This document shows, one piece after another, positions 19,701 through 22,700 of a stretch of DNA of 64,000 nt. Below the pieces are notes generated by a model. The model made no database searches and was not told the DNA's origin. It saw only the letters and a program-made list of their open reading frames with translations. Origin of the DNA: PVC group bacterium (ex Bugula neritina AB1). Its GTDB lineage: Bacteria; GCA-001730085. Location: NCBI GenBank assembly GCA_001730085.1, contig MDLB01000105.1:69-64068 (forward strand). The letters are read 5' to 3'. Position 1 is the stretch's first letter. Every line of letters begins with the position of its first letter. The translations under genes and the position numbers were made by a program.

Positions 19701-22700
19701 GAATTGTTTCAATTTTAGTTTAGCTGTCTTATTTCCCGTAGCTTTAACTACTGAAGAAGCAATACCTCCTAATATATGTTTAAAGACAACCTTTAAAACA
19801 CCTCCGGCAATATTTTTAAAAAGGCCTTGGAATAAACGAAGAGGCAATCCTATGATAGACATGATCATTTCTTGTATTTTACTAACAATCAATGCCGCAA
19901 GCTGTACAATAGCTCTAACGACTCTAATAATAACTTTGAGTACTTTTCCAATAAGACCCAAATATTTCATACCTTTCTCTAAAAACTTTAAGACTTTTGC
20001 TACCCCTTTAAGGACGGAGGAAAGCATCTTTGAGCCCTTACCTTTCATACGAAAGGCCACGACTTCACCTGCCGCTCCCCCTAGGTTAAGCTTATCCATT
20101 CGACCCGCTCCGCCTAACAAGATATTGAAATCAGACTTGATATTCCTTTGCGCTCTAGAGCTTCTCCCAATGGCCGTGAACTGCTCTGCTGTTTTGATCC
20201 CCGACTCTTTCTCAAACCTCGCCACTGGGCCTAAAAGAAAAACAGCCCCTAAGGTTCCAAAAAAGAATTTTTCAAAACCTGTCATGCCTTCTGTATCCCC
20301 AACATATAGTCGAGAAATTTCATTCAAGAGATACCCTTCCTCGGCACCTATAATTTTTTCTATTAAAGCTAAAAACATCCCTAAAAGACCTGTTATTCCG
20401 GCATAAGGGTCATTGATCATAGTGAAAATCATGGAAGGCATCATCACCATGAACTGGATAACAGCAAGCATCATCTGTGCCGCAAAAGCGTAAAACTGAA
20501 TACGGGTTGTCCTTTGACCAGACTTTTTATTTGTCTCCTTATTATCACCATCATCATTACCTTTTTTATCATAAGGAGAAGTGAAAATCTTTTTCCACGC
20601 CTTTTTATCTTTCCCCGCTTGAACCATCATAGCCACAACTGCCGCAATAGCTAAAGCTATTAAAACTATCGTCGCTACGGCTCCTAGTGTGATAATAGAC
20701 AACGCAATAAACACTACGAAAATAGCAGCCCCAATAAGCCCAGAGATAAGAGATGTTTGCTCATCTTTTGTCATCCACGCTTGGATTTTTTCGAAGGCGA
20801 CTTGTAATTCAACAGATAAAAAAGCTGATTTTTTTTCTGAACGACGTATATCTTTCACATTCTCTTCTACAGCGTTTATCCATGAATCCATCAATTTAAC
20901 AAAACCATCTCTAATTAATTTTAAAACCCACTCAATTGCTTTTAGTATAAATCGTACAGCTGTTATAATCCCTTGAACTATTGAAATAAAAAAAGCCGCT
21001 ACCGGATTAGTTTTTGCCTTTTCAAGTTTCTCCACAGCAACGTCTAGCTGTTGATTCGTGATTTCGAATAAGGCCAAAAGCGGTGCAAATAAAATTTGAA
21101 TAACCCCCTTTAGTATTTTAGGTAGAGCGGTTTTGGCAGAATCAAAAGCTTGCATCATGGAGTGTGCTATCGGCCCTACGAAACCCATCACACCTCCTAT
21201 GACACTCGCAAACATTTTTCCATCAACAATGTTATATTGCTGCTGCTTGAGTGTTGCACCAAAAGTGACTGCTAATTTATCACCTATTTTTATACCCAAT
21301 TTTTGGATATCTCTAAAAACTGGAACTTCGCTGAAAAAGTTCACTTTATGAGCAAGTTTTCCCCAAGTGTCGATCATTAAACTCCTTCTACGTCGTCCAT
21401 GAGTCATGATACTCATGTCCGTATAAATGAGTTTATCCTGATCTTTACCACTTTTAACATCAACCCTAAAAAGGTCATATCCACTATTTTCGATATCCGT
21501 GAAATAAAAATACTCTACTTCTACGATCCCATATTCAAAAGTCGAACGTTTTATTTGATAACCATATTCATTCCTAACATCAAAAATTTGCTGAACACGC
21601 ATTTTCTTTTCAAGAACTTTACCGCTTTCTATCGTTGTAAATTTTTTCGTATAAATAGCTGTTCCTGATCTGTCATAAATGACTCCTGGTTGAAACCAAG
21701 GCTCTTCCATCTGTAAAAAATAAGCTTGTCTCCCATTAGGGATATTCCTTGACTCTTTTTTATATACAAGTTCGCGATTAACCTTTCCATTTTTAAACTG
21801 TCTTTTATCTAACTTTGGAGGTAAAAGATAAAGATTCTTTAAGTTAGCTAATAAAGCTTGTCGGTCTTCCTGTGTCAACGTATATTTTTTAGGGTCGAAC
21901 CCAGGAGGTAAGATACTTGTATCCTTAAGCTCACCTCCAAGCAAAAAGTTTATAAAGTTCCTTGTCCTCTCAGGATCAAAGTTCCATGCCCCATAGAAAG
22001 ATCGTGAATGACCACCCTCACCCGAAGGAGCGATAGTATCTTCCATCCATCGATATAGTTGAACTTGCTTGCTCATAGGGTCTAACATATAGTACATGTA
22101 AGCTTTTTTTAAACTCGTTCGTTTGTCTTTATCAAAATCCCAGGAAGGTAAGCTCGTCGTAGTTAAAGCTTCTGGACTCCATAGAATATTTCTTTCTGAA
22201 ATATTTTTTACAAGGTTAAAAAGAGATTTTTTCTGAAGCCCTGTGAGCGTTCTTAAAAACTCTGTTTGAGTTTGATCAAGACCTTCCCTATTTAAAAAAT
22301 CATAACTGCGTGACCTTTCAGATAATTTCTCAAAAAGAAAGGCTTTACCTCCTCCCATCTTTTTTTTGAATAAACTTAAACTTGTTCGGTGGAAAATATC
22401 TGTCAAGACATACTCTTCAACTCTATTCATTCGAATATAACCATTTTCTATTAGTTGACTTAGATCAAAACGGCCTATATTCCTAATGTCTATGACTTGA
22501 TCTTTTCTATCATAAAACTCTCGTTTTATCTTCCCATCTTGATCTATATAGCCTTTACTTTTCAAAAGGTCAAAAATCTTCACAGCTTCTTTTTCATCAT
22601 ACCCCAGCTTTAAAAGATCTCTCGCATCAACAAAAGCTCCACCAACTGCTTCGTCATAACGCAAAGGCTCTAGGCTTGGATTATTATTCAAAGGATTGTC

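Follow-up and report, generated by a model that had tools for sequence, protein, structure and literature searches.

Some uncultivated lineages commonly encode bacterial proteins of more than 10,000 residues, and no cleavage points are known in them (10.1101/2023.11.21.568195). The giant proteins described there combine an N-terminal part free of transmembrane helices with C-terminal anchors and a motor domain, and cleavage has been suspected but left unmapped. 'Dockerin-type' and 'Archaeovorin' giant proteins have been reported from Omnitrophota (West-Roberts et al., 2023, 10.1101/2023.11.21.568195; Nielsen & Lui, 2026, 10.64898/2026.06.07.730766). In eukaryotes, a furin site, LNGRTRR/FA, is predicted in human teneurin-1 behind the YD region (PMC3278476). 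Giant bacterial proteins may act as one chain or as cut pieces. Here we analyse a 64,000-nt stretch of contig MDLB01000105.1 (the window), which is dominated by a single minus-strand open reading frame (ORF) of 18,253 codons. An arginine motif in its product, hereafter the giant protein, gives a precisely placed candidate for such a cleavage site.

The part of the window at 19,850-21,400, which encodes aa 12,690-13,207, is probably the module that joins and anchors the parts of giant cell-surface proteins belonging to a rare orphan family (the junction module). In our best overall reading, which we hold at a probability of about 40%, this module anchors a giant surface protein in the membrane of its producer and carries a processing site close to that membrane. 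That the motif T-H-G-R-x-R-R is itself the point of proteolytic cleavage is a tentative proposal, drawn from its pattern of conservation. The significance of the motif lies in its position at a sharp boundary of domain and composition and in its conservation, both of which go beyond chance. The parts of the protein on which the argument turns are as follows.

4707..59468, minus strand: giant ORF, 18,253 aa, with ATG start and TGA stop.
59376..59447, minus strand: N-terminal hydrophobic helix, aa 8-31 (hydrophobic segment aa 5-33), a putative signal peptide or signal anchor.
21405..59369, minus strand: acidic outer part rich in YD motifs, aa 34-12,688, net charge -511, with short diverged repeats.
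21489..21683, minus strand: beta-rich end of the outer part with the final conserved unit of YD type, aa 12,596-12,660, YDxxG..KFxT[IV]E..NxYGY..GIxxVxY[FY]Y.
21384..21404, minus strand: T-H-G-R-R-R-R, aa 12,689-12,695; T-H-G-R-x-R-R is invariant in the giant protein and two relatives (P0003 and P0005, below); candidate cleavage after R12695.
21216..21383, minus strand: variable linker, aa 12,696-12,751, opening with an 8-aa insertion specific to the giant protein and closing with a conserved QQ[YF]NI..G.

Composition and hydrophobicity scans bore out the original prediction that a GRRRRS site stands directly where a YD-like outer part gives way to a membrane part of several helices. The site lies about 90 aa past the last YD-type unit and about 55 aa ahead of the hydrophobic-helix cluster, and the net charge of the protein switches there from -511 to +34, +41, +13, +23 and +2 in five later segments. 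GRRRRS comprises aa 12,691-12,696 (21,398..21,381, minus strand) within the sequence MTHGRRRRSLMIDTWGK; the interval 21387..21398 given for it earlier does lie on the motif but covers G-R-R-R only. Its codons are GGA CGA CGT AGA AGG AGT. All four Arg codons differ, so that RRRR is no slippage repeat and an origin by slippage was ruled out.

When 1.84 billion representative proteins were searched exhaustively with phmmer, only six relatives of the giant protein were returned, all of them metagenomic fragments. Three word-indexed homology searches, made with the module, the nucleoside triphosphatase (NTPase) region and the module alignment, gave no matches; because the exhaustive search did find relatives, these searches were probably swamped by low-complexity membrane-helix words. 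No further members were found in GTDB species representatives, viral contigs, phages or plasmids, and JGI metagenome contigs yielded only the contig of P0003 again and no new member. With no Pfam or NCBIfam match in any part of its 18,253 residues, nor in any neighbouring gene, and with six relatives among 1.84 billion proteins, the family is invisible to current domain libraries.

Three of the relatives, with the giant protein, make up the four long family members: P0003 (2,346 aa), on contig L002 from the 0.2-um fraction of Hainich groundwater; P0004 (1,543 aa), on the 57-kb ENA contig L001, where the giant gene appears as a series of many ORFs on one strand; and P0005 (1,446 aa, MBU0650551.1), from a metagenome-assembled genome labelled only 'bacterium'. 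P0001, P0002 and P0006 are fragments of ~110-140 aa from JGI metagenomes, 62-65% (P0001 and P0002) and 40% (P0006) identical to the giant protein. The relatives come from independent metagenomes. On L002 the open frame containing P0003 reaches 3,803 aa (2985..14396) and stops inside the NTPase domain, 200 nt from the contig end and at a coverage of only about 5x; this stop may be an assembly error. The homologous giant gene at 1..24632 of L001 lies in at least 10 abutting or overlapping same-strand ORFs, without THGRxRR and without the first two hydrophobic helices of the module (H1 and H2), and reflects either gene decay or errors that shift the frame. In a JGI contig of 1 kb (L004 143..920), the matches to P0006 (aa 12,752-12,821) and P0001 (aa 12,877-12,975) stand on opposite strands, unlike the arrangement in the window, which is probably due to an assembly chimera or an inversion.

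Identity among the giant protein, P0003 and P0005 is 35-38% near the motif and 28-29% across the module as a whole, and they align at the motif as MTHGRRRRS, LTHGRLRRK and PTHGRVRRR respectively. T-H-G-R-x-R-R is thus invariant in three of the four long members; P3 is the sole varying position, and no Lys replaces Arg. It is the top 7-mer of the 820-aa module, with 6/7 positions invariant as against 105/603 columns (17%) overall, and is followed in rank by G-x-x-E-G-Y-L at 13,041. Insertions fall directly after the motif in the giant protein (8 aa) and directly before it in P0005 (20 aa), and these indels on both sides suggest that the motif segment may form a loop. As had been predicted for the tetra-arginine, all three sequences (RRRR/SL, RLRR/KI and RVRR/RA) fit the furin consensus R-x-K/R-R. 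The match alone is unremarkable, because the number of R-x-[KR]-R sites is near expectation: 4 versus about 6 in the whole giant protein, 3 versus 4.6 +/- 2.3 in the outer part and 0 versus 1.4 after the motif.

Beyond the linker, the module consists of a conserved hydrophobic core and a basic, amphipathic region.

21153..21215, minus strand: H1, Gly-rich hydrophobic helix, aa 12,752-12,772 (SVIGGVMGFVG), kept in three long relatives and P0006.
21054..21116, minus strand: H2, hydrophobic helix, aa 12,785-12,805, conserved; absent with H1 and the motif in P0004.
20757..21053, minus strand: region of helices, aa 12,806-12,904, hydrophilic in the relatives but amphipathic in the giant protein, closing with a conserved RRSE.K..F.
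20613..20756, minus strand: H3/H4, two-lobed hairpin, aa 12,905-12,952 (48 aa), with a T/S-x-G turn; in 4/4 long relatives and P0001.
20415..20501, minus strand: H5, hydrophobic helix, aa 12,990-13,018, from the hydrophobicity scan and alignment.
20328..20411, minus strand: helix, aa 13,020-13,040, and conserved G-x-x-E-G-Y, aa 13,041-13,047, the second-best conserved 7-mer.
20214..20276, minus strand: H6, hydrophobic helix, aa 13,065-13,085, conserved 4/4.
20136..20171, minus strand: second basic cluster, aa 13,100-13,111, GRSSRAQRNIK; EARQRRVARQ and EARKRRIARA in the relatives, loosely conserved.
19764..20045, minus strand: Lys-rich, strongly amphipathic helices, aa 13,142-13,235, from the hydrophobic moment.

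Hydrophobic segments were located with Kyte-Doolittle and TopPred-style scans, TopPred being run on the GES (Engelman-Steitz-Goldman) scale with 1.0 as 'certain'. They are confined to the N-terminus and to three clusters after the motif (12,752-13,210, 13,813-13,847 and 14,755-15,229), with eight certain segments in 12,752-13,085, one at 13,820-13,840 and eight in 14,762-15,229; the post-motif helices peak at up to 2.4 on the TopPred profile. Peaks on the alignment define six conserved helices (H1-H6, at ~12,762, ~12,795, ~12,920, ~12,942, ~13,009 and ~13,075), and the peaks at 12,830, present in the giant protein only, and 13,030 have no family-wide conservation. The predicted amphipathic region and very long helices were recovered as Lys-rich helices of high hydrophobic moment (12,830-12,865 and 13,142-13,215) and as hydrophobic clusters, but the very long helix is a stretch of 52 aa, 12,903-12,954, best interpreted as a hairpin of two helices that meet in a conserved T/S-x-G turn. 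The second basic cluster shows K/R exchange and a loose register among the relatives. Two of these, with EARQRR/V and EARKRR/I, have formal R-x-[KR]-R matches after H6 where the giant protein has RSSRAQR.

Three relatives have the same module order: a YD-like end, the hydrophobic core, a long linker, more membrane helices and a GIGKS/DEAH NTPase. The motif precedes the hydrophobic core in all members but P0004, which lacks the motif along with ~110 residues containing H1 and H2. No paralogue of the junction module was found elsewhere in the giant protein, and this possibility was rejected.

The giant ORF is a real gene. The ATG is preceded by a Shine-Dalgarno-like AAGGA, and the frame contains no in-frame stop as against 1,286 and 2,253 in the other two frames of the same strand; the gene is therefore read in the standard bacterial code, and an alternative genetic code was ruled out. 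The window contains no tRNA genes or Rfam families. An n-region (MFLKESKYK), a hydrophobic core and a possible cleavage site at A-F-G follow one another at the N-terminus, a layout that points to a Sec signal peptide or signal anchor, in agreement with the predicted signal-anchor helix. The outer part contains 25% Y+D+G+N and no hydrophobic segments. The pattern [YFW][DN]xx[GN][RQNKE] matches the giant protein 63 times (9 +/- 3 in shuffles), and all but one of the matches (62/63) lie before aa 12,700; the final YDxxG is kept in the relatives. Profiles for RHS_repeat (PF05593) and the YD repeat (TIGR01643) gave no match at E<=0.01 when the protein was searched in full, none at E<=10 (Pfam) or E<=1 (NCBIfam) in the stretch where YD-like motifs are densest, and none in the junction-proximal part of four family members. 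The YD repeats of the original prediction are therefore real at the level of motifs only. Sequence and profile searches of the PDB with the YD-like and NTPase parts gave no real match.

Internal repeats in the giant protein are short and weak and occur in the outer part only. Recurring motifs other than YD in this part are L[IV]x[KRNT]G[YM]I..(D/K)G, with five occurrences versus 0.2 expected (e.g. aa 461, 3320, 10596, 11290 and 12339), and W..FW, with four versus 0.1 expected (aa 2376, 3161, 3535 and 3726); they suggest small helical insert domains dotted through the YD-like region. The giant protein has only 7 cysteines in 18,253 aa.

C-terminal to the junction module, the protein continues with further membrane helices and the NTPase motifs.

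17949..18011, minus strand: isolated membrane helix, aa 13,820-13,840, from the hydrophobicity scan.
15219..17921, minus strand: helical linker rich in K/E/Q/L, aa 13,850-14,750, coiled-coil-like by composition only.
13782..15185, minus strand: second multi-helix membrane cluster, aa 14,762-15,229, with 8 certain segments.
11931..11963, minus strand: Walker A / helicase motif I, AVTGIGKSKTI, aa 15,836-15,846, invariant in P0003 and L001.
11481..11534, minus strand: Walker B, MLVDEAHMIGDIPSLISG, aa 15,979-15,996, core invariant in P0003, with a motif-level likeness to SecA LIDEARTPLIISG.
10113..10124, minus strand: MTGT, aa 16,449-16,452, with a motif-level likeness to SecA GMTGTA.

The giant protein, P0003 and the L001 contig have A-x-T-G-I-G-K-S-x-T in common, and L-[IV]-D-E-A-H-x-x-G-D-I-P-S-L-I-x-G also occurs in P0003. 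Where E. coli SecA has MRTGEGKT, LIDEARTPLIISG and GMTGTA, the giant protein has AVTGIGKSKT, LVDEAHMIGDIPSLISG and YMTGTT, a likeness limited to the motifs GxGKS/T, [LV]DEAH..P.LISG and MTGT. Homology to SecA was rejected, as a profile-to-sequence comparison (hhalign) with the E. coli protein gave a probability of 0.4%. A piece of 1,101 aa had no Pfam match, SecA_DEAD (PF07517) included, at E<=1, and phmmer and profile searches of the PDB with the NTPase part were negative. Recent in-frame tandem duplications in the giant ORF (window 15613..15756, 16304..16466 and 9375..9428) measure 45 nt x 2.1 (100% identity), 27 nt x 2.2, 87 nt x 1.9 and 27 nt x 2.0. All but the last fall in the helical linker (e.g. 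MDGTIPKISKILPNN twice); the last lies past the NTPase motifs in the C-terminal part (EELDKNQKA twice).

We propose that the N-terminal Sec-type signal directs export of the 12.6-thousand-residue acidic part, whose charge and lack of hydrophobic segments fit an exported part. The conserved core, six helices including the two-lobed hairpin plus two extra in the giant protein, would then provide stop-transfer anchors in the producer's own cytoplasmic membrane, and the remainder (the long helical linker, nine more membrane helices and the Walker-A/DEAH NTPase) would end in the cytoplasm. From the end of the outer part to the NTPase there are 17 certain segments, or 15 if only the conserved helices of the first cluster are counted (6 versus 8). 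As both numbers are odd, they are compatible with a YD-like part outside and a cytoplasmic NTPase, the topology that we infer with these crude predictors, and P0004, which loses H1 and H2 as a pair, keeps the parity.

The motif, in a variable linker ~55 residues outside the first membrane helix, would be a specific recognition site. Its strictness, with P3 alone free, no Lys and an invariant T-H-G, in an indel-prone linker and with a loosely conserved second cluster further on, commits us to a putative recognition site rather than a charge patch. We favour endoproteolytic maturation because it is the commonest role of R-x-R-R in the juxtamembrane linker of an exported protein. A dibasic-specific protease of subtilisin/kexin-like, omptin-like or trypsin-like type, supplied by the producer or by a partner cell, could cut after R-x-R-R, and eukaryotic furin would not be required. 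Cleavage would detach the huge outer part from the motor embedded in the membrane, or the two might stay together non-covalently. The neo-N-terminus predicted for a cut after R12695, SLMIDTWGK..., is searchable in metaproteomes.

Several observations weigh against this proposal. The motif is carried by three sequences only, and the long relative P0004 does without it. An outer part exposed to such a protease might be expected to have lost furin-type sites, but a test for this signature found them neither depleted nor in excess (3 versus 4.6). No protease domain, S8 or other, was detected in the giant protein or the neighbouring genes by Pfam/NCBIfam and a motif scan. In the AlphaFold model a helix begins at the motif, a placement to which a predicted local distance difference test (pLDDT) score below 30 gives little weight; its two jobs, the module with 7 sequences and the NTPase with 2, had a mean pLDDT of 40 each. 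The even number of helices in the first cluster would leave the Lys-rich region 13,086-13,819 outside, contrary to the positive-inside rule, and the detailed topology is ambiguous with crude predictors. The putative Walker-A/DEAH NTPase is recognized by its motifs, with Pfam, PDB and hhalign-SecA comparisons all negative. The anatomy is real, and the mechanism that we propose on it draws on three motif-bearing sequences.

The arginines might also serve without any cleavage, as a topogenic or membrane-interface element that, with the second cluster, binds anionic lipid head groups or envelope polymers and fixes the insertion of the helices. Two basic clusters do bracket six conserved hydrophobic helices, the module and the next 560 aa are net positive, and neither a protease nor a depletion of R-x-[KR]-R sites elsewhere was found. 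Electrostatics alone, however, leaves the invariant T-H-G unexplained; the first motif is strict, with T-H-G and R at three fixed positions and no Lys, whereas the second is loose, and the first stands ~55 aa from the first hydrophobic helix, immediately behind the acidic part, for which export is predicted. We regard this explanation as possible but not probable; were it correct, the finding would shrink to the description of an unusual anchor module. A basic run that arose by chance at a domain boundary and has no specific role would agree with the count of R-x-[KR]-R sites (4 seen, about 6 expected), with a conservation that rests on three sequences and with a naive estimate of ~0.1 for a 6/7-invariant window somewhere in the module. 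It accords poorly with a top-ranked 7-mer that is invariant among proteins 35-38% identical locally, includes the non-basic T-H-G and is flanked by indels on both sides, and we consider it most improbable.

The other alternatives keep the cleavage but change its purpose. The original prediction suggested a host-directed protein; on that model it would be cut by eukaryotic furin, and its downstream helices would form an AB-toxin-like translocon for the host membrane. The three furin-type sites, the amphipathic-helix module with a hydrophobic hairpin after the site, as in the diphtheria toxin T domain, and the site after the YD region of teneurin-1 are in keeping with this; weaker pointers are that all genes of the window are orphans and that a neighbouring gene (described below) encodes two-lobed hydrophobic stretches as in effectors of intracellular bacteria. 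The motif is indeed constrained in the manner of a proprotein-convertase-type site, with only P3 free, but a host furin found no support. No toxin, enzyme or translocation-domain family was matched anywhere in the protein. The part after the motif is conserved across the relatives, unlike variable toxin cargo, and comprises 5.5 thousand residues with 17 strongly hydrophobic segments, hydrophobic enough for stop-transfer in the producer's membrane, and an NTPase that would need cytoplasmic ATP; the N-terminal Sec-type signal implies co-translational anchoring in that same membrane. The three other furin-type sites of the outer part (aa 5,665, 6,282 and 8,464) are tolerated, P0004 has no motif, and the sole relative with a nameable habitat is that from the 0.2-um groundwater fraction, which does not indicate a eukaryotic host. 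A host-directed role of this kind is thus unlikely.

By analogy with the polybasic-site priming of class I viral fusion proteins, cleavage could instead free the linker and the Gly-rich H1/H2 hairpin to enter a prey or host membrane, the rest remaining anchored in the producer. A conserved Gly-rich SVIGG.xGFxG does lie ~55 aa past the basic site, long helical segments come next, and H1+H2 seem to come and go with the motif as a single unit, both being gone in P0004; H1 and H2 could equally well be ordinary membrane helices, and this analogy is to our mind very unlikely to hold. Similarly, there is only a small chance that the motif acts as the switch for maturation in a contact machine of ~2 megadalton (MDa) not described before. 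Cleavage would there release or prime the YD-like outer part, and the Gly-rich H1/H2 hairpin would become exposed for insertion into a partner cell's membrane; the producer's membrane would keep the hydrophobic core and the Walker-A/DEAH motor, which would drive export or transfer. If true, this would be the first mapped processing site in a bacterial protein of more than 10,000 residues. Our preferred reading remains an anchor in the producer's membrane with a candidate processing site beside it.

The neighbouring genes are orphans as well. Directly downstream of the giant gene and on the same strand are two paralogous genes for secreted or lipoprotein-like proteins, 418..1941 (minus strand, 507 aa) and 2699..4165 (minus strand, 488 aa). 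Their products are 47% identical, with hardly any difference over the first ~35 residues, have the block GFH[QE]GNA..PAGAPAFVDFS in common and match no Pfam or NCBIfam family. At the other end, 61702..64000 (plus strand) encodes a membrane protein of at least 766 aa, which runs off the right end of the window; it contains long two-lobed hydrophobic stretches and a repeated unit, ..PW...DILEQ..L....W.IY.L.W....AWD...F[QE]ENW.SLV.EF. The 158-aa ORF upstream of it (60201..60677, plus strand) carries the same PW...DILEQ unit. The interval 59.5-61.7 kb has 27-29% G+C and no long ORF.

Tat signal peptides resemble the junction in having consecutive arginines upstream of a hydrophobic sequence. However, the motif of the giant protein is internal and follows a part predicted to be exported, no hydrophobic stretch comes within the 20 aa after it (in the giant protein and in P0005), and the [ST]RRxF[LIV] consensus is absent; a Tat signal was therefore ruled out. 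Autoproteolysis of the Rhs type was likewise ruled out at the junction by the absence of DPxGL, and zincin, sortase and serine-protease motifs were looked for in the giant protein and rejected; DP.G[LWFIM] or DPxG[L], HExxH, LPxTG and GDSG are all missing from it. In Rhs/YD polymorphic toxins and the TcB-TcC cocoon of Tc toxins, as here, a beta region rich in YD motifs ends in a short conserved motif that is the presumed division point. The giant protein differs from the Rhs proteins in having neither an RHS_repeat/YD profile match nor the PxxxxDPxGL aspartyl autoprotease motif, in carrying a conserved membrane module instead of a variable toxin after its motif and in a repeat region about ten times longer.

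The likeness to furin-activated AB toxins consists in an R-x-R-R site followed by amphipathic helices around a hydrophobic helical hairpin; in diphtheria toxin, the furin site RVRR/S precedes the T domain. The giant protein, on the other hand, has no homology to these toxins, no catalytic cargo and a reversed size relation, and known translocation or pore-forming domains gave only sub-threshold Pfam (best E=0.011) and NCBIfam matches. The Sec signal, the very hydrophobic helices and the C-terminal NTPase argue for anchoring in the producer's membrane, unlike the toxins. Teneurins share with the giant protein, on our reading, an N-terminal membrane anchor and an extracellular YD region with a predicted furin-type site after it. 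The predicted resemblance goes no further: a teneurin has a single membrane helix, carries EGF/NHL/Tox-GHH domains and ends in a short peptide beyond the site, whereas the giant protein lacks those Pfam domains and continues for 5.5 thousand residues with ~17 membrane helices and an NTPase.

The giant proteins of Omnitrophota differ in their parts, in that dockerin, TSP3, C39, S8 and SecA_DEAD were undetected in the giant protein, its outer part is YD-like and it has no sequence homology to anything named. The plan is the same. Both are of one size class, with an N-terminal signal, a long N-terminal part free of membrane helices, membrane helices near the C-terminal third and then a DEAD/H-type motor; a relative has its origin in groundwater, and post-translational cleavage is suspected in both. 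The family described here therefore belongs neither to the RHS proteins, nor to the SecA_DEAD homologues, nor to the teneurins, and has the architecture of the Omnitrophota type. A giant membrane-anchored surface protein with a C-terminal motor is a kind of object known from recent work; what is new here is a conserved candidate cleavage motif at a defined position in a near-unique family.

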